Source: a virus. Taken from it: 22,115 bases of DNA. The notes beneath the pieces were generated by a model that worked only from the letters and a program-made list of their open reading frames with translations, searched no databases and was not told the origin of the DNA. How positions within the stretch are numbered: position 1 is the first letter of the stretch; every line of letters begins with the position of its first letter. Positions 5,949 to 18,209 of this stretch are shown here, piece by piece. A program made the translations under genes and the position numbers. The stretch is taken from UHGV virus genome UHGV-0080127; one strand, given 5' to 3'.

Positions 5949-6144
5949 AGTCCTCCCGCGAGATCTGCCCGTCGCGCAGAAGCTGGTAGGCTTTGTGTTT
6001 GTAGTACCAGTTGATAGCCAGCATCAGCACACCAATCATCAGGCCGCCCAGCGTTGAGGCATCCTTGATGGACAAATCACCCAGCCAGGCCAGCACGACG
6101 GCGATGCAATACGTGATAAAGGCGCTGATTCGCTCAAGCGTCAT
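5929..6144 (-). CDS. Holin (small membrane protein)
   Basis: 71-aa ORF with two hydrophobic helices and a charged C-terminus, directly upstream of the endolysin. Confidence 0.6.
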   Translation of the reverse strand: MTLERISAFITYCIAVVLAWLGDLSIKDASTLGGLMIGVLMLAINWYYKHKAYQLLRDGQISREDYESINR

Positions 6145-6147
6145 AAT

Positions 6148-6351
6148 TCAGTCCCATAGCTGGACGGTCTGCACGGTGGTGGTGGTCGGAATGTCCGGCA
6201 GCTCCACCTGCAGCCCGTGAGGTAAAAAAGGGCCAAATTCGGCAAGCCCCGGATTTGCCTTCAGTACCTGCTCCGTGACACCCTGCGTGCGCCCGTAATG
6301 ACGCCAGCAAAGCGCGTCCACCGTGTCATACTGATGCGCACGCACTTTCAT
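6148..6351 (-). CDS. X: Tail protein X
   Basis: 67-aa ORF, ATG at 6351 overlapping the L stop; size and position match P2 gpX. Confidence 0.75.
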   Translation of the reverse strand: MKVRAHQYDTVDALCWRHYGRTQGVTEQVLKANPGLAEFGPFLPHGLQVELPDIPTTTTVQTVQLWD

Positions 6352-6815
6352 CAGATAAGCTCCACTGTGCAGTGCGGCGCATCCTGCACCCGGCTGATGG
6401 CCCAGCGGGCGTCACGCCACAAATCACCGCTGGCTTCTGCCAGTTCTTCGCCTCGCTTCACACCGGATGCCGTGGCGTCATAGTCCTGGTATCGTTCGTT
6501 GAGCATGGCGCGAGCCCAGCAGTAAACCGCGTTGAAATAGTGCTGAATGCGCTCGCTTTTCCCGTCCAGCGATTCCGCCGGAACCTCTGCCAGCGAGGCA
6601 TATCCCAGCATCTGCTGGCGTCTGCGAAACTCAAACAGCTCTGCGTTGACCTCCGAAATTGCCGACAGCGCAACCTGCTTTAAACGCGGCTGCGTCACCG
6701 TGCCGTCAGTGCGCATCACACTGCGAAACTCCGACAGGTCCACATCAGGCCAGAACGGCGTATTTCTGATGATTTCCGCCTGTTCCGGTGCCTGTTCTGG
6801 CGCAACAAACTTCAT
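6351..6815 (-). CDS. L: Capsid completion protein gpL
   Basis: ORF-track start at 6878 is GTG; the in-frame ATG at 6815 (MKFVAPEQ...) has an AGGAGA RBS. Position between M and X. Confidence 0.75.
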   Translation of the reverse strand: MKFVAPEQAPEQAEIIRNTPFWPDVDLSEFRSVMRTDGTVTQPRLKQVALSAISEVNAELFEFRRRQQMLGYASLAEVPAESLDGKSERIQHYFNAVYCWARAMLNERYQDYDATASGVKRGEELAEASGDLWRDARWAISRVQDAPHCTVELI

Positions 6816-9615: not shown

Positions 9616-11382
9616 ATGAACACCACACTGACACCCGCAGATCTCGATCCCCGTCGGCAGGCCATGCTGCTGTACTTTCAGGGATACCGCGTAGCCCGCA
9701 TTGCTGAAATGCTGGGCGAGAAAGTTGCAACCGTTCACAGCTGGAAAAAACGCGACAAGTGGGGTGATTATGGGCCGCTGGATCAGATGCAGCTCACTAC
9801 CGCCGCACGCTACTGCCAGCTCATCATGAAGGAGCACAAAGAAGGGAAAGATTTCAAAGAAATTGACCTGCTGGCGCGCCAGTCGGAGCGCCACGCGCGG
9901 ATCGGCAAGTTTAACAATGGCGGTAACGAAGCCGACTTAAACCCTAACGTCGCCAACCGCAACAAAGGCCCGCGCCGTCAGCCGGAAAAGAATGTTTTCA
10001 CCGATGAACAGATTGAGAAGCTGGAAGAAATTTTCCATTCCTCCATGTTCAACTACCAGCGCCACTGGTGGGAAGCCGGAAAAACCAACCGCATCCGCAA
10101 CCTGCTGAAGTCACGCCAGATCGGCGCGACCTTTTACTTTGCCCGTGAAGCCCTGATTGACGCCCTGCTTACCGGACGTAACCAGATTTTCCTTTCCGCC
10201 AGCAAGGCACAGGCCCACGTCTTTAAGCAGTACATCATCGACTTCGCCAAAGAAGTGGAGGTGGAGTTGAAAGGCGATCCGATGGTGCTTCCTAACGGGG
10301 CCACGCTTTACTTCCTCGGCACCAATGCCCGCACTGCCCAGAGTTATCACGGCAACCTGTATCTGGATGAATATTTCTGGATACCGAAATTCCAGGAGCT
10401 GCGCAAAGTGGCTTCCGGTATGGCTATTCACAAAAAATGGCGACAAACCTATTTTTCCACGCCATCCAGCCTGACTCACAGTGCTTATCCGTTCTGGTCC
10501 GGTGCGCTGTTCAATCGTGGGCGCAACAAAGCCGATAAGGTGGACATCGACCTGTCCCACAGCAATCTGGCCCCCGGCCTGCTGTGCGCAGACGGGCAGT
10601 ACCGCCAGATAGTCACTGTGGAAGATGCGGTGCGCGGCGGCTGTAACCTGTTCGACCTCGACCAGTTGCGCATGGAGTACAGCCCGGACGAATACCAGAA
10701 CCTGCTGATGTGCGAGTTTGTGGACGATCTCGCGTCCGTGTTTCCGCTCAGCGAGCTGCAGGCGTGCATGGTGGACAGTTGGGAAGTCTGGACCGACTTT
10801 CATGCTCTGGCCCTGCGCCCGTTTGGCTGGCGCGAAGTGTGGATCGGTTATGACCCGGCAAAAGGTACGCAGAACGGCGACAGCGCCGGATGCGTGGTGG
10901 TGGCACCGCCAGCCGTGCCGGGCGGCAAGTTCCGCATTCTGGAGCGACACCAGTGGCGCGGGATGGACTTCCGCGCCCAGGCTGACGCCATTAAAAAACT
11001 GACGCAGCAGTACAACGTGACCTATATCGGCATCGACTCGACCGGCGTCGGTCACGGTGTCTACGAGAACGTGAAAGCGTTCTTTCCTGCCGTGCGGGAG
11101 TTTGTCTACAACCCCAACGTCAAAAACGCCCTGGTGCTCAAGGCCTACGACATCATCAGCCACCGCCGTCTGGAGTTTGACGCCGGACACACTGACATTG
11201 CGCAGTCATTCATGGCAATCCGTCGCGCAACCACCGCCAGCGGCAACCGCCCGACCTATGAAGCCAGCCGCAGCGAAGAAGCCAGCCACGCCGATCTGGC
11301 CTGGGCAACAATGCACGCACTGTTTAACGAACCGCTGCAGGGCGAATCCGCCAATACCAGCAATATTGTGGAGATTTTTTGA
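9616..11382 (+). CDS. P: Terminase large (ATPase) subunit gpP
   Basis: 588-aa ORF, ATG at 9616; P2 gpP-like; its stop overlaps the Q start (TGATG). Confidence 0.9.
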   Translation: MNTTLTPADLDPRRQAMLLYFQGYRVARIAEMLGEKVATVHSWKKRDKWGDYGPLDQMQLTTAARYCQLIMKEHKEGKDFKEIDLLARQSERHARIGKFNNGGNEADLNPNVANRNKGPRRQPEKNVFTDEQIEKLEEIFHSSMFNYQRHWWEAGKTNRIRNLLKSRQIGATFYFAREALIDALLTGRNQIFLSASKAQAHVFKQYIIDFAKEVEVELKGDPMVLPNGATLYFLGTNARTAQSYHGNLYLDEYFWIPKFQELRKVASGMAIHKKWRQTYFSTPSSLTHSAYPFWSGALFNRGRNKADKVDIDLSHSNLAPGLLCADGQYRQIVTVEDAVRGGCNLFDLDQLRMEYSPDEYQNLLMCEFVDDLASVFPLSELQACMVDSWEVWTDFHALALRPFGWREVWIGYDPAKGTQNGDSAGCVVVAPPAVPGGKFRILERHQWRGMDFRAQADAIKKLTQQYNVTYIGIDSTGVGHGVYENVKAFFPAVREFVYNPNVKNALVLKAYDIISHRRLEFDAGHTDIAQSFMAIRRATTASGNRPTYEASRSEEASHADLAWATMHALFNEPLQGESANTSNIVEIF

Positions 11383-12428
11383 TGAGTGAACCCGAAGCCT
11401 TAACCAGCAAAACGCCAACAGAAGCTACGGCACCGAAAAACACAGGCGTAAGTGCCGAGGCTTTCAGCTTTGGCGATCCGATCCCGGTACTGGACCGCCG
11501 CGAGCTGCTGGACTATGTGGAATGCGTACAGATGGACAGATGGTATGAACCGCCGGTCAGTTTTGATGGGCTGGCTCGCACCTATCGCGCCGCCGTACAT
11601 CACAGCTCACCGATTGCAGTGAAATGCAACATTCTAACCAGCACCTACATCCCTCACCCGCTGCTTAGCCAGCAGGCTTTTTCACGTTTTGTGCAGGACT
11701 ATCTGGTATTTGGTAACGCCTACCTGGAGAAACGCACGAACCGCTTCGGTGAAGTTATCGCCCTTGAGCCTGCTCTGGCAAAATACACCCGACGCGGATT
11801 AGATCTGGATACCTACTGGTTTGTGCAATACGGCATGACCACGCAACCGTATCAGTTCACGAAAGGCAGCATTTTTCACCTAATGGAACCGGATATTAAT
11901 CAGGAGATCTACGGCCTGCCCGGTTATCTTTCTGCCATTCCGTCTGCCCTGCTCAACGAGTCCGCCACGCTGTTCCGTCGAAAGTATTACATTAACGGCA
12001 GTCATGCAGGCTTCATTATGTACATGACCGATGCCGCGCAAAACCAGGAGGATGTGAACAACCTCCGCAATGCGATGAAAAGCGCCAAAGGACCAGGTAA
12101 CTTCCGCAATCTGTTTATGTACTCGCCTAACGGCAAAAAGGACGGGCTTCAGATCATCCCGTTGTCAGAAGTCGCGGCGAAGGATGAGTTTCTAAATATC
12201 AAGAACGTGAGCCGGGACGACATGATGGCAGCACACCGAGTGCCGCCGCAGATGATGGGGATTATGCCTAATAATGTAGGGGGGTTTGGGGATGTGGAGA
12301 AAGCCAGCCGGGTATTTGTTCGGAATGAACTGATGCCTTTACAAAAACGCATTGCCGAAATTAATGAATGGTTAGATGAAGAGGTAGTCAAATTTGAATA
12401 TTATGGCTTAGAAAATAATCAGTCATAA
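11382..12428 (+). CDS. Q: Portal protein gpQ
   Basis: ORF-track start 11379 is TTG; ATG at 11382 overlaps the P stop, with GGAG upstream; about 348 aa, P2 gpQ-like. Confidence 0.9.
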   Translation: MSEPEALTSKTPTEATAPKNTGVSAEAFSFGDPIPVLDRRELLDYVECVQMDRWYEPPVSFDGLARTYRAAVHHSSPIAVKCNILTSTYIPHPLLSQQAFSRFVQDYLVFGNAYLEKRTNRFGEVIALEPALAKYTRRGLDLDTYWFVQYGMTTQPYQFTKGSIFHLMEPDINQEIYGLPGYLSAIPSALLNESATLFRRKYYINGSHAGFIMYMTDAAQNQEDVNNLRNAMKSAKGPGNFRNLFMYSPNGKKDGLQIIPLSEVAAKDEFLNIKNVSRDDMMAAHRVPPQMMGIMPNNVGGFGDVEKASRVFVRNELMPLQKRIAEINEWLDEEVVKFEYYGLENNQS

Positions 12429-12435
12429 AAAAGAA

Positions 12436-12466
12436 GTGAACAAGTTGAATTTATCAGCTTGTTCAC
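12436..12466. terminator. Bidirectional hairpin terminator between convergent Q and the 12484-12952 cassette
   Basis: Perfect 9-bp inverted repeat GTGAACAAG...CTTGTTCAC with a 13-nt loop; on the minus strand it is followed by TTCTTTTTT. Confidence 0.55.
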
Positions 12467-12483
12467 TATTATCTGTATTATCT

Positions 12484-12753
12484 CTACTGCATCCGTCCGG
12501 GTAAATCGCTTTCATTGCGTAAACGCCAAGCTAACTGTTCACGATCCCAAACTATATCGTCTTTGCTAGCCTTTCTAAAATTTGCTAGCACAGTACTGCT
12601 TATAGCGTAATTACCATTCTCATTAGTTTTGATGAACTCGTCCCCAAAGTCATTGATTAGAAATTCAACAACCTCGGACTGATACAACACACCATTAGAA
12701 CGAGTGGTATTAACCATCCAGTCAACTATTTTTATCAGAGAATCATTCATCAT
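12484..12753 (-). CDS. Hypothetical protein (about 89 aa), second gene of the cos-proximal cassette
   Basis: Start placed at ATGATG (12753) overlapping the upstream gene's last codons and stop (GATGATGAATGA); AT-rich; no family recognised. Confidence 0.5.
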   Translation of the reverse strand: MMNDSLIKIVDWMVNTTRSNGVLYQSEVVEFLINDFGDEFIKTNENGNYAISSTVLANFRKASKDDIVWDREQLAWRLRNESDLPGRMQ

Positions 12754-12952
12754 CACTCTCAGCTTTTGGAACAAATAAAACTAGAGTATCTTCGTGAAAA
12801 ACTCCGCGCTGGTTCTTAGCACCAATAAACCACGTACAAACTGCCATTGTAGCCGATTGGTAGTGATCAATTACCATGATTGGACCATGTCCTGTTGCAT
12901 GTTTTACTTTCTGGCCCGGTGTATATTTTGCCACTCTCACGTCTCCTTTCAT
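12743..12952 (-). CDS. Small protein resembling the DUF2158/YodC family (69 aa)
   Basis: ATG at 12952; motifs PGQKVKH..GHGPIMVI and AVCTWF resemble my recollection of YodC-like small proteins; no clear Shine-Dalgarno, possibly a short leader. Confidence 0.5.
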   Translation of the reverse strand: MKGDVRVAKYTPGQKVKHATGHGPIMVIDHYQSATMAVCTWFIGAKNQRGVFHEDTLVLFVPKAESDDE

Positions 12953-13013
12953 GTGTAAGTTATCAATTTCAGAATATATCTACATTAATTGCAAGTAAAC
13001 ATGTTTGCGCGCG

Positions 13014-13032
13014 CTCGTATCCCCGCCACGCC
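13014..13032 (-). other. Candidate cos site (cohesive-end sequence)
   Basis: Minus strand reads GGCGTGGCGGGGATACGAG followed by CGCGCGC, closely resembling my recollection of the P2 19-nt cohesive end GGCGAGGCGGGGAAAGCAC followed by TGCGCGC; correct side and orientation relative to Q. Confidence 0.5.
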
Positions 13033-13075
13033 TGCCCGCTTTTTGTAGCGATTTTCATGCAGGTGCATGACATAA

Positions 13076-13101
13076 GCAAAAGCCCACCAGAACTGGCGGG
13101 C
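13076..13101 (-). terminator. Rho-independent terminator downstream of the 260-aa membrane protein gene
   Basis: Minus strand GCCCGCC-agttct-GGTGGGC (7-bp stem with one G-U pair) followed by TTTTGC, about 50 nt after the stop at 13150. Confidence 0.5.
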
Positions 13102-13149
13102 CTCAGCAAAAACGATCCTCAAACGATCATGCATATTCATGCGGCATAG

Positions 13150-13932
13150 TCATGCAGTGACTTTGGTCTGGTCAGGCGTAGAAAAATCTTCGAAAGATTT
13201 ATAAGTTTCAGTATCAAATATTGAAATACTCTCAACCTGATCCATTGGGATTACATGCCTAAAATGATTTAAGTTCAGTGGAGTTGAGTCTGCTGTAATA
13301 TTTTTACTAAGGTAAAGTTCATAGTAACGATGCTGCTCATGGTATCTGAGCGTATCTTTATCACGATAACCACTGATGTATGGTATGAGAGCCAGATGCT
13401 GAGTTTCCTGATGCTCCATCCGAGGAGCAGCTACGTAACCAATGTAAACTTTTCTGGATTTTAGCGTAACAAAGATGAGCTTACCTTCATCTATAGCCTG
13501 AACTAACAGTGACTCAATTCCATCTTGAGCTGCCATCTCGCGATATGCAGATTGACGAATCTCTTCGTTTTCTATTGCTCTTCGCGCATTGTTACCTTGG
13601 TCATAAGCAATAAACACCGCAAGCAGCATAGACAACACAAAGAACAATGGGTAAGACATTATCTTTACGTCTGTGAGCCATGAATAAAAGTCCACATGTA
13701 ACTTAGGCCAAAAATAACCAAAAAAATTGATAACTGAGCTTATAACTAGCAAGGTAACGAATGTAACAGCCATCAGAGTAAACCCCTGAATAGCAAACTT
13801 ACAACCATGCATAGCTACATAAAAATAGGAATTCCAACCATTACTTCTTGCTTGCCTGATGCGGGACTGGTAATGATTTTCGGTGTACCAGAACCCGCAA
13901 ACCAGGACGACCATGATAACTAAGGGTCCCAT
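13150..13932 (-). CDS. Hypothetical multi-pass membrane protein (260 aa) with a roughly 150-aa soluble C-terminal domain
   Basis: ATG at 13932 lies 3 nt after the upstream gene's TGA with AAGGA inside it (translational coupling); three hydrophobic stretches in the first ~110 aa; AT-rich codon usage unlike flanking phage genes. Confidence 0.6.
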   Translation of the reverse strand: MGPLVIMVVLVCGFWYTENHYQSRIRQARSNGWNSYFYVAMHGCKFAIQGFTLMAVTFVTLLVISSVINFFGYFWPKLHVDFYSWLTDVKIMSYPLFFVLSMLLAVFIAYDQGNNARRAIENEEIRQSAYREMAAQDGIESLLVQAIDEGKLIFVTLKSRKVYIGYVAAPRMEHQETQHLALIPYISGYRDKDTLRYHEQHRYYELYLSKNITADSTPLNLNHFRHVIPMDQVESISIFDTETYKSFEDFSTPDQTKVTA

Positions 13933-14355: not shown

Positions 14356-14589
14356 CTAATGTAACCAGCTGTCGTCTTCCCACACCTTCTGCATAATTTT
14401 CATCACTTGCTTCCTTTCTTCGTCCAGTTGCAGTCCGGTCAGTTCCACACCGTTAGAGCTACCTTTGCGGATACGAATTACCGTTTTGGGATACAGGGGG
14501 CGCAGATTGCGGTAAAGCTCGGATTCAAGGGCGTCCAGTGTAGACTGGCTAATCTTCTGCTCTTTATCGATCATTATTTCAATGCGCAT
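14356..14589 (-). CDS. dinI: DinI-family protein (about 77 aa)
   Basis: From the in-frame ATG at 14589 (AGGTGA RBS) the protein reads MRIEIMIDKEQKISQSTLDALESELYRNL...QKVWEDDSWLH, matching the DinI pattern (MRIEVTI...ETWESADDW). Confidence 0.75.
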   Translation of the reverse strand: MRIEIMIDKEQKISQSTLDALESELYRNLRPLYPKTVIRIRKGSSNGVELTGLQLDEERKQVMKIMQKVWEDDSWLH

Positions 14590-14599
14590 AAAAGTCACC

Positions 14600-14788
14600 T
14601 CAGCTGATGACATCCATTGAGCGGTTGTATTCGTGGGTTCTGATTTTTGCCATGAGTTCATCTGTTAGTTCAGAAACCCACTGCAAAGCCAGCCCCTTCT
14701 CTTCATCACTACACTCACTAGCCGCTACAAGCTTAAGAAAAAAATCAATGCGCTGGAGCTTCAAAGACTCCAAAAAATAGTCCTGCAT
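14600..14788 (-). CDS. Hypothetical 62-aa protein, first gene of the SOS operon (possible Tum-like antirepressor segment)
   Basis: ATG at 14788 with AGGAGGAAAG RBS, about 43 bp downstream of a LexA box; function inferred only from synteny with the 186 tum operon. Confidence 0.45.
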   Translation of the reverse strand: MQDYFLESLKLQRIDFFLKLVAASECSDEEKGLALQWVSELTDELMAKIRTHEYNRSMDVIS

Positions 14789-14940: not shown

Positions 14941-17355
14941 TTAATACAGGTTCCGCCACTTATCATCTTCCTTCAGACGCTGGTTCCGATAGAAGATACG
15001 CAGGCCTGCTCCTGACGGAATACTGCCACCGCGAAGGAGTAAATCGACCTCTTTCTCGCTGCCATCAAATCCTCTGGACTTCAGTTCATAGACGAGCTGC
15101 TGTCGTTGATGGTCTGTAATTCGCTGTTTGTAGTCTCTACGCCGTTTCGGTTTCACCAGGCGTAACCTTACAGCCAGTTCCCGGCGCTCTTTTTTGTTCA
15201 TACTGTGCAGAAAATCGTGCAACTCCTTGTCATCCATGCGGGTAATATCCGTTCTGGTGTCCCCATCAGCTGATTTATCTTTCTCCTGTTGGTTCAAATT
15301 TTCAGCAAGGGGACAGTTATTGCCACGAGTCCAAGGGGCGCAAGCGCCCTGGTCGGCTGCCGCCTCCTGAACGTCAACGGCCTTACGAACCATTTTCCAC
15401 TTCACCGCATGAGTGCAGATCTTGCCCTCTGCAATGGGTGACCAGATGCCATAAATACGAATACCGTGATCGCCATAAGCGGTTGGCTCTTCGTTGATTT
15501 CATAAGCGGTTCTGATGAGGTGATATTTACGGGGAACCAGTACGCCACCCTGCTTCATGATATAGGTGGCAAAACAACCAGCATCAGCAGCAGCCAGAAT
15601 GGCATCAAGGCGCGGGTTATCCAGTACCGGCGCACCTGCTTTTTTGTCACCCTGTTGCCTTGCCGCCTGACCAGCCAGCAATCGCAGTTCACGGTAAGCC
15701 TGACGCCCCGGAATGCCAAAGAAGCGGAATTGCTGAACACGATGCAGAGACGCCCAGGCATTAACGTATTCAGCGTTATCACGCAGGGATTTACCCGTTT
15801 CCTTGCTGATCTCCCCAGCCAGACCACGCCCGTCAATGTTCTTACTGATGTATTTCGCGATATAGCTTGTTGGCGTACCTTTGCGCGGGTTTATCAGCTC
15901 AGACTTAAAGCGTGGTCCCGTGTTATTGCCCAGCTCCTCGCGGTCTTCACGGATGGCAAACTTACGCAGTAATGCAGTGATGGCGCGGCGGTCTTTTTTA
16001 CGCATGAAACACATGAGATGCCAGTGCACAGTACCGTCATGATGCGGCTCAGCTACCCGCACGCCATACCAGCGCAACTCGGCTTTATGCATAGCCTTAC
16101 GAAATGCAGCAAACATGCCGACCAGATAATCGCTACTTTGTCTTACCGTCGCGTTTGTCCAGGTCGGGTTTGGTCTGCCGTTATTGAGCGTGGAATGGAA
16201 ACGCGACGGACAGGTGATAGTGTAGAAAACGGCACAGTCACTGCGCATTTCCGCGATAAGCTCCAGACCTTTAACACAGGCCATCATCTCATTGCGGCGA
16301 TGCGCCGGGTTGCTGCTGCTGGCGTTTACCACATCTTCCATATCCAGCGTGTCGCCGTCTTCGTTCACCAGTTCATGAGAACGAAAAAACTCCAGCGACT
16401 TACGGCGCTGCTCACGTTTATGCATCACGGCTTCATAGCTGACATAGGGGGATGCTTTTTTGCTGACCAGGCAGACAGCACGCAACTGCTCTTCCCGCCA
16501 TTCGCAACGCATCTTCCATAATTTCCGATACCACCAGTCGGCACACAACATACGCGCCAGCGAACCCGGGATGAGTTCATAGGGCACTGGTTTGCGGCGG
16601 TTTCTTTTCCGACGAAGTTTCTCAAACGCAGGCGGGATAACATCCAGACGCAGGGTTTCCGCTGCCACCTTTTCCCATGTCTTGCGGATTTCTTCTGGCT
16701 TAACGTCATCGGTGGCATACAAATCACCACAAGCGTCCTCAAGACACATGCTCATATGCGCTGCTACCAGGGTGGACAGGCGTTTCACCTGATCCTGGCT
16801 CATTTCAGGCAGGATCAGCAGACCCTCCAGCCCTTGATGGCTTGCCATAAAACGGAAAGAAACAGATAGCTGACTGTCACGTACACAATCCAGTCGCTCC
16901 AGACATGGCTTAATCGTCTCACGCAAATAGCGGGAATAAGCCTTTGGCCTGCCCAGGCTGCTGAAGTATTCAATACGTTGCATCAGCGGCTTGCTGATAT
17001 GGGAAGGCTGGGCGTTTACGTCCGCCAGAATGACCATGTCCGGATTAAAACGCTGCTGCTCATGCGCCAGCTTTGCCCGGCTAATGAGCTTATCCTGCTC
17101 CATTTCGCGCTGGACAGGATCACGGGATTCATTAAAGAAATAACGCTCCCAGACCTGCTCACTCAGTGCCTCGCGGCGCAGTTGTTCCTGCTCGTTATCG
17201 GCAGCGTACAGAGTGATCAGGTTTGAAAGTGCAGACTCCGGCGCAACTTCCGCCGGGTCCAGATAAGGGTTAATGGCCTTTTTCGAGCCGTTCCATGAAA
17301 ATGCTGCGGCGGCCTCGTTAAAGCCGCTGCAATTGTTCATATCGTCATGACTCAT
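14941..17355 (-). CDS. A: Replication initiation endonuclease gpA (rolling-circle type)
   Basis: About 804 aa from the ATG at 17355 (ORF-track start 17361 is GTG), which overlaps the dam stop (ATGA); contains an HUH-like motif ([13 protein letters not shown]); P2 gpA-like. Confidence 0.9.
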
Positions 17356-18209
17356 ACACACACTCCGTACACGGCAGAACTATCCACGCCACGCGAAGGA
17401 TCAAATCCCAACCAGCAGCTCGGCCCGGAAACAGCAATGATTTCTGTTGCAGATTTACCCTCGCCAGCTGACACGCCGATGCTGCGTTTTGCCTTGATAT
17501 AGTGGTGAGTAAAATTGCGATACAGCGAACGAATCAGGGATGTGTCATTGTTAGAAACAATGACCGGATGTCCTTCTGATGACCGATGTTCAAGAATGGA
17601 TGCCAGGTGATACTGGTCATCTTCAGTGAAACCATCAGTGTGATAGCCGGAAAACGTACCGTCATACGGCGGATCGCAATACACCACATCCCCCACCTGC
17701 AGCATCGCCAGCGTTTCATCAAAGCTCGCGCAGATAAACGTTGCCCGCTGGGCTTTCTCTGCAAATGCGCGAATTTCTTTTTCAGGGAAATACGGATTTT
17801 TATAATTACCGTAGGGAATGTTGAAATACCCGCTCTTGTTATAGCGACATAAACCACGGTAACCGTGACGATTGAGATACAGGAAATATATCGCCTTCAT
17901 GAAATCAGTAATTTCAGTTGAGTAATTAAACTCCTGTCTTATGTTGTAATAAGCCAGCTCACTGTTTGCTTCCTCAAATAAAACTTTGGCACGAGATATA
18001 AACGCTTCGCAATCAGCGGCAATCTTTTTATAGAGGTTGATTAAATCAGGATTAATATCCGCAACCAGATAGCTGGGGTAATCCGTCGCCATCATCACAG
18101 CACAAGAACCCGCGAAAGGTTCAACCAGTCGCGGGCCAGCAGGAAGGTATTTTTTCAGTTCGGACATAATGGCGGTTTTATTACCCGCCCATTTCAGGAT
18201 GGTGCTCAT
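17352..18209 (-). CDS. dam: DNA adenine methyltransferase (Dam family)
   Basis: From the ATG at 18209 the protein reads [11 protein letters not shown]..., with AdoMet-binding region and DPPY catalytic motif; translationally coupled to A. Confidence 0.85.

Follow-up and report, generated by a model that had tools for sequence, protein, structure and literature searches.

A coupled DUF2158–DUF6953 gene pair between cos and the portal gene of a P2-like prophage

Why should a P2-like prophage carry two small genes between its packaging signal and its portal gene, an interval in which P2 itself has none? The question is raised by UHGV-0080127, a virus genome of 22,115 nucleotides (hereafter the window, meaning the whole stretch of DNA that was analysed), which is a prophage of the P2/186/Fels-2-like type and holds a two-gene cassette in the short interval beside its cohesive-end site, cos. 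We conclude that this segment was acquired horizontally and forms a self-contained accessory unit, or ‘moron’, placed in the cos-to-portal sub-slot of the gpA–gpQ hotspot. Its genes belong to the YodC/DUF2158 and DUF6953 families, and DUF2158 plus DUF6953 is a conserved, co-inherited operon found across many phyla, sometimes as a fusion and with no third gene required. A conflict or toxin–antitoxin (TA)-like role for the pair is our leading hypothesis only, drawn from its context and architecture. The parts of the locus are these:

11379–12428, plus strand: portal gene (gpQ homologue), left boundary of the slot; an open reading frame (ORF) annotated as ‘phage portal protein’ by the Prokaryotic Genome Annotation Pipeline (PGAP) in the E. 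coli COL60J locus
12426–12467, minus strand: intrinsic terminator, a stem-loop at 12435–12467 (GTGAACAAG...CTTGTTCAC) with its tract, recognised by fold energy and by a stem change in Klebsiella
12484–12753, minus strand: DUF6953 gene with a predicted winged-helix product, 88 aa from ATG 12750 (89 aa from ATG 12753), stop TAG 12484–12486
12743–12934, minus strand: divergent YodC/DUF2158-family gene, 63 aa from GTG 12934, stop TGA 12743–12745
12935–12948, minus strand: ribosome-binding site of the small YodC/DUF2158-family gene, AAGGAG (12948–12943) with an 8-nt spacer (12942–12935) before the GTG, recognised by Klebsiella conservation
12953–13013, minus strand: putative control region that separates cos from the small gene; the Klebsiella cassette has it in conserved form
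13014–13032: cos cohesive-end sequence GGCGTGGCGGGGATACGAG (minus strand), right boundary of the insert and left end of the mature phage genome

The insert and its signals

The portal gene runs convergently with the cassette, and its stop at 12428 lies 585 bp from the end of cos. The GC content of this interval (0.37–0.39, against 0.50–0.62 in the terminase and portal genes) bears out an earlier note on this DNA, made from the letters and their ORFs, which had described about 600 bp of AT-rich DNA between cos and the Q stop. Two minus-strand ORFs occupy the interval, at 12743–12952 and 12484–12753/12774, and as first annotated they overlap in ATGATGAATGA; the compact, coupled cassette of the earlier note is present where that note had placed it, overlap included, and is autonomous. 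The cos sequence is equivalent to cosL 1–19 of P2 and 186, and a gpA homologue is found at 14941–17361, so that the insert lies between A and Q, adjoining cos. The cassette starts a few tens of bp from the left cohesive end of the mature genome, and the conserved cos flank of about 125 bp sits on the opposite side of the cut. The earlier note's remark that the cassette is packaged or injected first holds trivially, as one or the other, of any segment at a genome end. The PGAP annotation used here is that of the 99.8%-identical locus of E. coli COL60J.

A comparison of cos-to-Q distances, suggested by the earlier note, shows the cassette to be an insertion relative to both P2 and 186. With cosL at 1–19, the Q stop of P2 falls at 187 and the equivalent portal stop of 186 at 196, and the resulting cos–Q/W interval of about 170 bp contains a terminator alone and no genes. 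Among 5426 complete E. coli genomes, 1251 match the conserved cos block at 13005–13156 (as do 45 phage records) and 8 carry the cassette, a distribution that does not fit a fixed morphogenetic feature kept by all related phages at this position. Because the insert is rare and neither P2 nor 186 has genes there, we regard it as cargo of the known gpA–gpQ hotspot. At the sensitivities used, neither the 50,697 phage records nor the 72,556 plasmids searched contained the cassette; the same phage records gave no match to DUF6953 proteins in tblastn, and word-index protein searches with both window proteins returned near-identical enterobacterial matches only. An identical copy is present in six IMG/VR contigs.

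The same slot, with the same cos flank, holds other genes in related prophages: a 383-aa protein of the TIGR02391 family in CFT073 (L002, 2772–3923) and a 565-aa hypothetical protein in Fels-2 (L003, 2243–3940). An A-to-Q position beside cos and a content that varies among related prophages are the marks of hotspot cargo, and the cassette has both. The gpA–gpQ interval beside cos has been described as a variability and defence hotspot of P2-like phages (PMC9122126, PMC13586616), and gene content near cosL is variable in Ralstonia P2-like phages as well, according to a report on them (PMC5694545). The hotspot table of Rousset 2022 lists WP_024169233 and WP_096997786, the proteins of our cassette, as ‘hypothetical + hypothetical’, for example in NZ_CP025903 (PMC9122126); that study curated arrangements with at least 10 occurrences only (PMC9122126), and we found no sign in it that the pair was examined. 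A further DUF2158-containing arrangement, WP_001547483 + WP_001161210 + WP_000816354, appears for P2-like prophages in its supplementary file 6. The class, cos-proximal hotspot cargo of P2, is already recognised and the proteins themselves are already catalogued, unnamed, in the literature; what is new here is the recognition of YodC/DUF2158 plus DUF6953 as a widespread coupled module, with its fusion and its recurrent placement in prophages.

Within the cassette, comparison with a Klebsiella P2-like prophage, which has the same unit at the same position and proteins that are both about 87% identical in amino acid sequence, is informative about the gene starts. At the 5′ end of the small gene, ATGAAAGGAGAC is invariant between the E. 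coli and Klebsiella copies, the 6 nt that follow show 5 differences, and in GTGGCAAAATAT there are again none. Since the Shine-Dalgarno sequence and the start region are invariant and the spacer between them variable, GTG 12934 is the most likely start of the small gene, whose product then has 63 aa, in agreement with PGAP. The 69-aa version given previously begins at an upstream ATG (12952), and this choice explains why the gene had seemed to lack a Shine-Dalgarno sequence: AAGGAG, at 12948–12943, falls within the first codons of the longer ORF. In the downstream gene, the first of two ATGs is AAG in Klebsiella and only the second, at 12750, is conserved, giving a product of 88 aa. The earlier note's unknown protein of 89 aa belongs to Pfam DUF6953 (PF22266), with a match of 5e-24 and 84.7 bits against a gathering threshold of 27 that covers residues 8–77 and profile positions 4–73 of 74; it also matches phrog_10782. 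The stop of the small gene overlaps the DUF6953 start by 8 nt (ATGAATGA). Between the E. coli and Klebsiella cassettes, the ratio of nonsynonymous to synonymous substitutions (dN/dS) is 0.05 and 0.08 for the two genes at a dS of about 0.9, and judging from these values both genes are under strong purifying selection.

The family of the small protein is less immediate. It scores 19.5–19.7 bits against Pfam DUF2158 (PF09926), below the gathering cut-off of 22.3, matches phrog_3261 at 1e-7, and reaches 4e-7 in phmmer comparisons. When aligned with 79 bona fide DUF2158 partners it retains G7, G17, P18, W35, F36 and G38, the KSGGP of the family having become ATGHGP, and its predicted model is a five-strand SH3-like small β-barrel. 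Because the invariant residues, the barrel fold and the position upstream of DUF6953 are all retained, we consider it, from alignment and model, a divergent YodC/DUF2158 member despite the sub-threshold score; the assignment as YodC/DUF2158-like, already proposed, is upheld. The product of the downstream gene has the predicted fold of a winged helix, whose likeness to winged helix-turn-helix (wHTH)–WYL regulators is at fold level only (8–16% identity).

The terminator proposed for the portal side is well supported. Its hairpin has a 14-pair stem (−16.1 kcal/mol; z −5.1; a stability reached by none of 200 shuffles) and is succeeded on the minus strand by UUCUUUUUU; the tract, TCTTTTTT(A) at 12434–12426, overlaps the portal stop codon, and the stem bears a compensatory change in Klebsiella (AAG/CTT to AAA/TTT). 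A stable GC-containing hairpin followed by a U-tract is what characterises Rho-independent terminators, and by analogy with tQ, found at the equivalent place in P2, this one probably also ends the convergent P–Q operon. The candidate promoter fares less uniformly. About 50 bp between cos and the Shine-Dalgarno sequence are well conserved with Klebsiella, which speaks for it; the candidate σ70 site, TTTACT (12999–12994) and TATATT (12978–12973) with a 15-nt spacer, is only a weak match to the consensus and was not flagged by a consensus promoter scan, and for these reasons the promoter activity of the 12953–13013 region is something we infer from the sequence. A perfect 10-bp palindrome, AAACATGTTT at 12997–13006, adjoins the GC-rich end of cos and overlaps the candidate −35; its Klebsiella counterpart, AAGCATGTTT, is imperfect. 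Rfam and tRNA scans gave no match, and an RNA antitoxin or small RNA is therefore not indicated.

Two of the eight E. coli carriers bear insertion sequences (ISs) in or near the unit. In strain KL53 (L145), an IS1 lies within the small gene (target site 12822–12831) and leaves DUF6953 intact; in DS26-1 (L146), an IS66-family element at 12972–12979, just upstream of the candidate −10, displaces the −35. Such insertions could mean that the cassette is costly, or merely that AT-rich DNA attracts IS elements.

A coupled pair across phyla

The pairing of the two families extends well beyond this locus. A HMMER scan with the DUF6953 protein yielded 639 representative clusters, and a degenerate DNA pattern derived from its invariant residues and searched in one-genome-per-species contigs gave 120 loci, all but one of them true DUF6953 genes, distributed over Proteobacteria, Acidobacteria, Planctomycetes, Verrucomicrobia and Actinobacteria. 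Among the 111 loci with sufficient upstream DNA, 82 have a co-directional DUF2158 ORF as the adjoining upstream gene and 29 lack this partner; 79 of 80 partner ORFs match Pfam DUF2158 (best 2.5e-19). The genes are also tightly joined: among 83 pair junctions, 61 overlap, mostly as ATGA or TAATG, and 20 are within 10 nt. In a mirror-tree comparison, pairwise identities of the partners correlate with r = 0.54, the highest value reached by permutation being 0.20. In the reverse direction, DUF6953 succeeds all six partner-type DUF2158 proteins that we looked up; in two of these loci the original gene caller had overlooked the DUF6953 gene. One protein, P0145, is a natural DUF2158–DUF6953 fusion (3e-10 and 4e-26) with about 1.5 DUF2158 repeats, and a Variovorax locus (L153, 4793–5458) has two tandem DUF2158 genes ahead of DUF6953, echoing those repeats.

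DUF6953 is found in other protein architectures as well. It forms the C-terminal domain of the longer proteins P0015, P0132, P0060, P0142 and P0158, and among the N-terminal parts of such fusions are a TIR domain in P0015, zinc ribbons and, in P0158, a weak HEPN-like region of Swt1 type. The N-termini of many other members consist of long acidic repeats and end in a PEPDPNLT-like motif. For the other family, it has been reported that YodC-domain genes, some of them fused to WYL, accompany UG2/DRT2 reverse transcriptases (bioRxiv 10.1101/2021.12.02.470933).

No third gene recurs near the pair among the DUF6953 loci. Integrases account for 6 of 142 immediate neighbours; the others include resolvases, small terminases, conjugation genes, Abi_alpha, AIPR and PIN, and also housekeeping genes, between which the Variovorax pair sits. 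About a dozen of the 142, as a raw count, have strong PADLOC matches (a CBASS cyclase, AbiU, SoFic and several PDC candidates), and the defence island that houses the Accumulibacter pair also encodes a CAP12-type TIR protein, an SRA–HNH protein, an SNase and a RES–Xre pair. A canonical ‘YodC family + DUF6953 family’ pair has matches in 19 E. coli genomes. In the two that we examined it lies in lambdoid prophages (P22-like and other) with different head modules. In the lambdoid prophages of E. coli and Pantoea (6002–6468 in both L149 and L150, 6001–6464 in L138), the pair is flanked by the lysis genes on one side and by terS on the other; it is antisense to the late operon, and its start is about 26 bp away from terS. 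The 119 diverse DUF6953 loci include none that is P2-like.

Candidate functions of the pair

What could such a pair do for a prophage? The cassette has the layout of an independent transcription unit, with its own putative control region, a Shine-Dalgarno sequence, two coupled genes and a hairpin terminator that would be shared back-to-back with the portal operon, and the prophage could transcribe it separately from the late genes. Its orientation, opposite to the late operons, suggests expression in the lysogen rather than late in the cycle and is typical of prophage-expressed genes. The reading that we favour, with a confidence that stops a little short of calling it probable, is that the cassette is a conflict module of mobile elements, either TA-like or acting in superinfection exclusion. 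We favour it because the unit is coupled and mobile and because DUF6953 is fused to a TIR effector in P0015; the company of YodC-domain genes and UG2/DRT2 reverse transcriptases points the same way. The two proteins would act as one complex built solely of binding domains, in which the small barrel protein may be the active, target-binding partner and the winged-helix protein its cognate neutraliser, a sensor and a probable autoregulator, in a gene order that would be ‘reversed’ as in HigBA, MqsRA and HicAB. The roles are assigned in this way because DUF6953 occurs alone in about a quarter of the loci and partner-type DUF2158 never does (six look-ups), and because the IS1 of KL53 disrupts the small gene and spares DUF6953.

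Several observations weigh against a conflict module. Neither protein matches NCBIfam, PADLOC or another Pfam family above threshold, neither predicted fold contains a catalytic site or an enzyme domain, and a 60-aa barrel like that of the small protein is not known from any characterised toxin. Solo DUF2158 proteins exist, E. coli YodC among them, which is atypical for toxins, as are the tandem DUF2158 copies and the DUF2158–DUF6953 fusions described above. The winged-helix protein of the window is acidic (pI 4.65), which would be unusual in a DNA-binding repressor, and the E. coli and Klebsiella promoter regions have no inverted repeat or operator in common. The evidence for the roles of the partners is itself open to objection: the six look-ups are biased by a profile built from partner-type sequences, and the IS insertions of KL53 and DS26-1 are anecdotal and confounded by polarity. 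Searches of the literature found no phenotype or expression data on the pair. Nor does the location decide the matter, as only 3 of the 8 P2 candidates assayed by Rousset 2022 defended (PMC9122126) and the hotspot also houses non-defence cargo, including partition and toxin genes (PMC9122126).

Homology searches were of limited help. In PADLOC-DB v2.0.0 the sole match was JukA for DUF6953, at E 0.033, with none for the small protein; neither protein resembles a known toxin or antitoxin family in sequence; sequence-profile searches of the PDB found no solved relative for either family, and Foldseek against BFVD gave nothing below E 0.04. The charge and isoelectric point of the proteins do not discriminate between the readings. 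No functional study on DUF6953, DUF2158 or YodC was found in the searchable literature, throughout which DUF6953 goes unmentioned.

A bolder form of the conflict hypothesis, which we hold improbable, is that the pair is an unrecognised, phylum-spanning and enzyme-free two-protein conflict module, captured beside a packaging signal or packaging gene by unrelated temperate phages (P2-like, P22-like and other lambdoids) and acting by binding, with DUF6953 serving as the sensor domain as it would in the TIR fusions. What is bound could be foreign incoming or replicating DNA, the terminase–cos complexes of rivals or satellites, or a core host factor.

Among the alternatives, an anti-defence operon of the anti-CRISPR and anti-CRISPR-associated (Acr–Aca) type shares many features with the cassette: a small gene followed at once by a small (w)HTH gene, a candidate promoter and a terminator that belong to the unit itself, and residence on prophages and further mobile elements, both proteins being pure binding modules by predicted fold. 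The barrel would inhibit an immune component and the winged helix would repress its own operon, and the location at the extreme end of the mature genome would permit very early expression after injection. We nonetheless consider this account unlikely. The upstream gene is hypervariable in acr–aca loci, whereas here both partners are conserved and, to judge from the mirror-tree correlation, co-diverge; the pair spans phyla with very different immune repertoires and is also found between housekeeping genes, as in Variovorax; and no operator was found for a winged-helix protein that is, in the window, acidic. Another doubtful possibility, suggested by analogy with the single-chain wHTH–WYL regulators BrxR and CapW, is a split transcription factor or sensor in which DUF6953 would supply the DNA-binding part and the YodC barrel would recognise a ligand or a nucleic-acid signal, tuning prophage or host genes in trans during, for example, induction, immunity or stress; it is weakened by the lack of any regulated neighbour near the pair.

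The recurrence of the pair next to packaging functions in unrelated phages, tens of bp from cos in the P2-like prophage and about 26 bp from terS in the lambdoid ones, together with two further small terminases among the 142 neighbours, raises the idea of a packaging-site-associated factor, a complex at cos/pac or on terminase that would bias packaging or exclude satellites and rival phages. However, cos- and terS-proximal positions are well-known cargo sites for any moron and explain the placement equally well, most pairs lie outside recognisable phage packaging modules, with none of the 119 diverse loci P2-like, and the genes are oriented opposite to the late operons, so we rate such a role as very unlikely. 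Finally, chance ORFs or decaying remnants in an AT-rich spacer, an idea that the short ORFs, the sub-threshold Pfam score of the small protein and the IS insertions in two of eight carriers might encourage, have a negligible probability, being excluded by the dN/dS of the two genes, by the cross-phylum pairing (82/111) and by the coupling at 83 junctions, and contradicted also by the strength of the DUF6953 match and by confident AlphaFold2 models.

If the conflict function is true, the pair would add a very small, enzyme-free and widely distributed module of about 150 codons to the immunity and addiction systems carried by phages, and it would provide a first function for two Pfam DUF families, DUF6953 and DUF2158/YodC, the latter including an uncharacterised protein of E. 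coli K-12. If it is not, the cassette illustrates that P2-like phages have a second slot for cargo on the portal side of cos. The comparative result can be used at once: it comprises an operon that is conserved, a Rosetta-stone fusion, fusions to TIR, and placement adjacent to cos or terS in several phage types. In either case the cassette is a real insertion and a good candidate for experiment.

Neighbouring genes and known systems

Across cos from the cassette, the minus strand encodes a 260-aa protein (13150–13932) with hydrophobic N-terminal segments, which matches phrog_3630 at 8e-90 and no Pfam family, and a co-directional ORF of 66–91 aa (13936–14136/14211; phrog_22451). The same two genes are found in CFT073, and they are probably the ‘first’ cassette implied by the earlier note, which had called the present one the second. 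Further on, between the hotspot cargo and gpA, at 14356–14661 on the minus strand, a DinI-like gene (Pfam 1.3e-22) is accompanied by a conserved 62-aa hypothetical gene (PGAP, COL60J, L001); both recur in CFT073, Fels-2 and KL53 and appear to be semi-core in phages of this group. Within the conserved cos flank, a hairpin at 13074–13102 (GCCCACCAG-AA-CTGGCGGGC), followed by TTTTGCTT on the minus strand, was not called by our scan because its loop is too short; it could terminate the 260-aa operon upstream, ahead of cos, or belong to the region that terminase recognises.

Of the systems to which the cassette can be compared, the cargo of the P2-like hotspot (old/tin and the systems of PMC9122126 and PMC13586616) shares its location, at the same locus beside cos, and the cassette is, like such cargo, short, AT-rich and variable between similar prophages. 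The insert of the window differs from old/tin of P2 in lying on the portal side of cos, old/tin being on the other side. Unlike most validated hotspot systems, the pair has no enzymatic or membrane effector domain and no PADLOC match, and it is too rare to have reached the threshold of 10 occurrences applied to the curated arrangements of Rousset 2022.

In architecture, the cassette is reminiscent of type II TA systems in which the toxin gene comes first (HigBA, MqsRA, HicAB): a pair of small genes in the same direction, the stop of one overlapping the start of the next, a downstream partner with a predicted (winged) helix-turn-helix fold that also occurs alone, a patchy distribution on mobile elements, and an upstream gene disrupted by an IS in one strain. 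It departs from them in having no sequence or fold match to the known families, and tandem copies and fusions of the putative toxin would be unusual. With respect to regulators of phage defence such as BrxR and CapW (wHTH–WYL), the unit consists of two separate small proteins with no WYL or WCX domain, and no regulated defence operon adjoins the DUF2158–DUF6953 pair. The resemblance to Acr–Aca systems, a small gene directly upstream of a small HTH-type gene in an autonomous prophage operon, is offset by an upstream gene that belongs to a conserved, co-diverging family rather than a hypervariable one and that is also found in non-mobile chromosomal contexts.

Lastly, E. coli YodC (DUF2158/COG5475) is of the same Pfam family as the small protein and has the same predicted small β-barrel of about 60 aa. 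In K-12, yodC is a solitary, uncharacterised chromosomal gene; the protein of the window, by comparison, is divergent, falls below the Pfam cut-off, has ATGHGP in place of KSGGP, and is paired with DUF6953.

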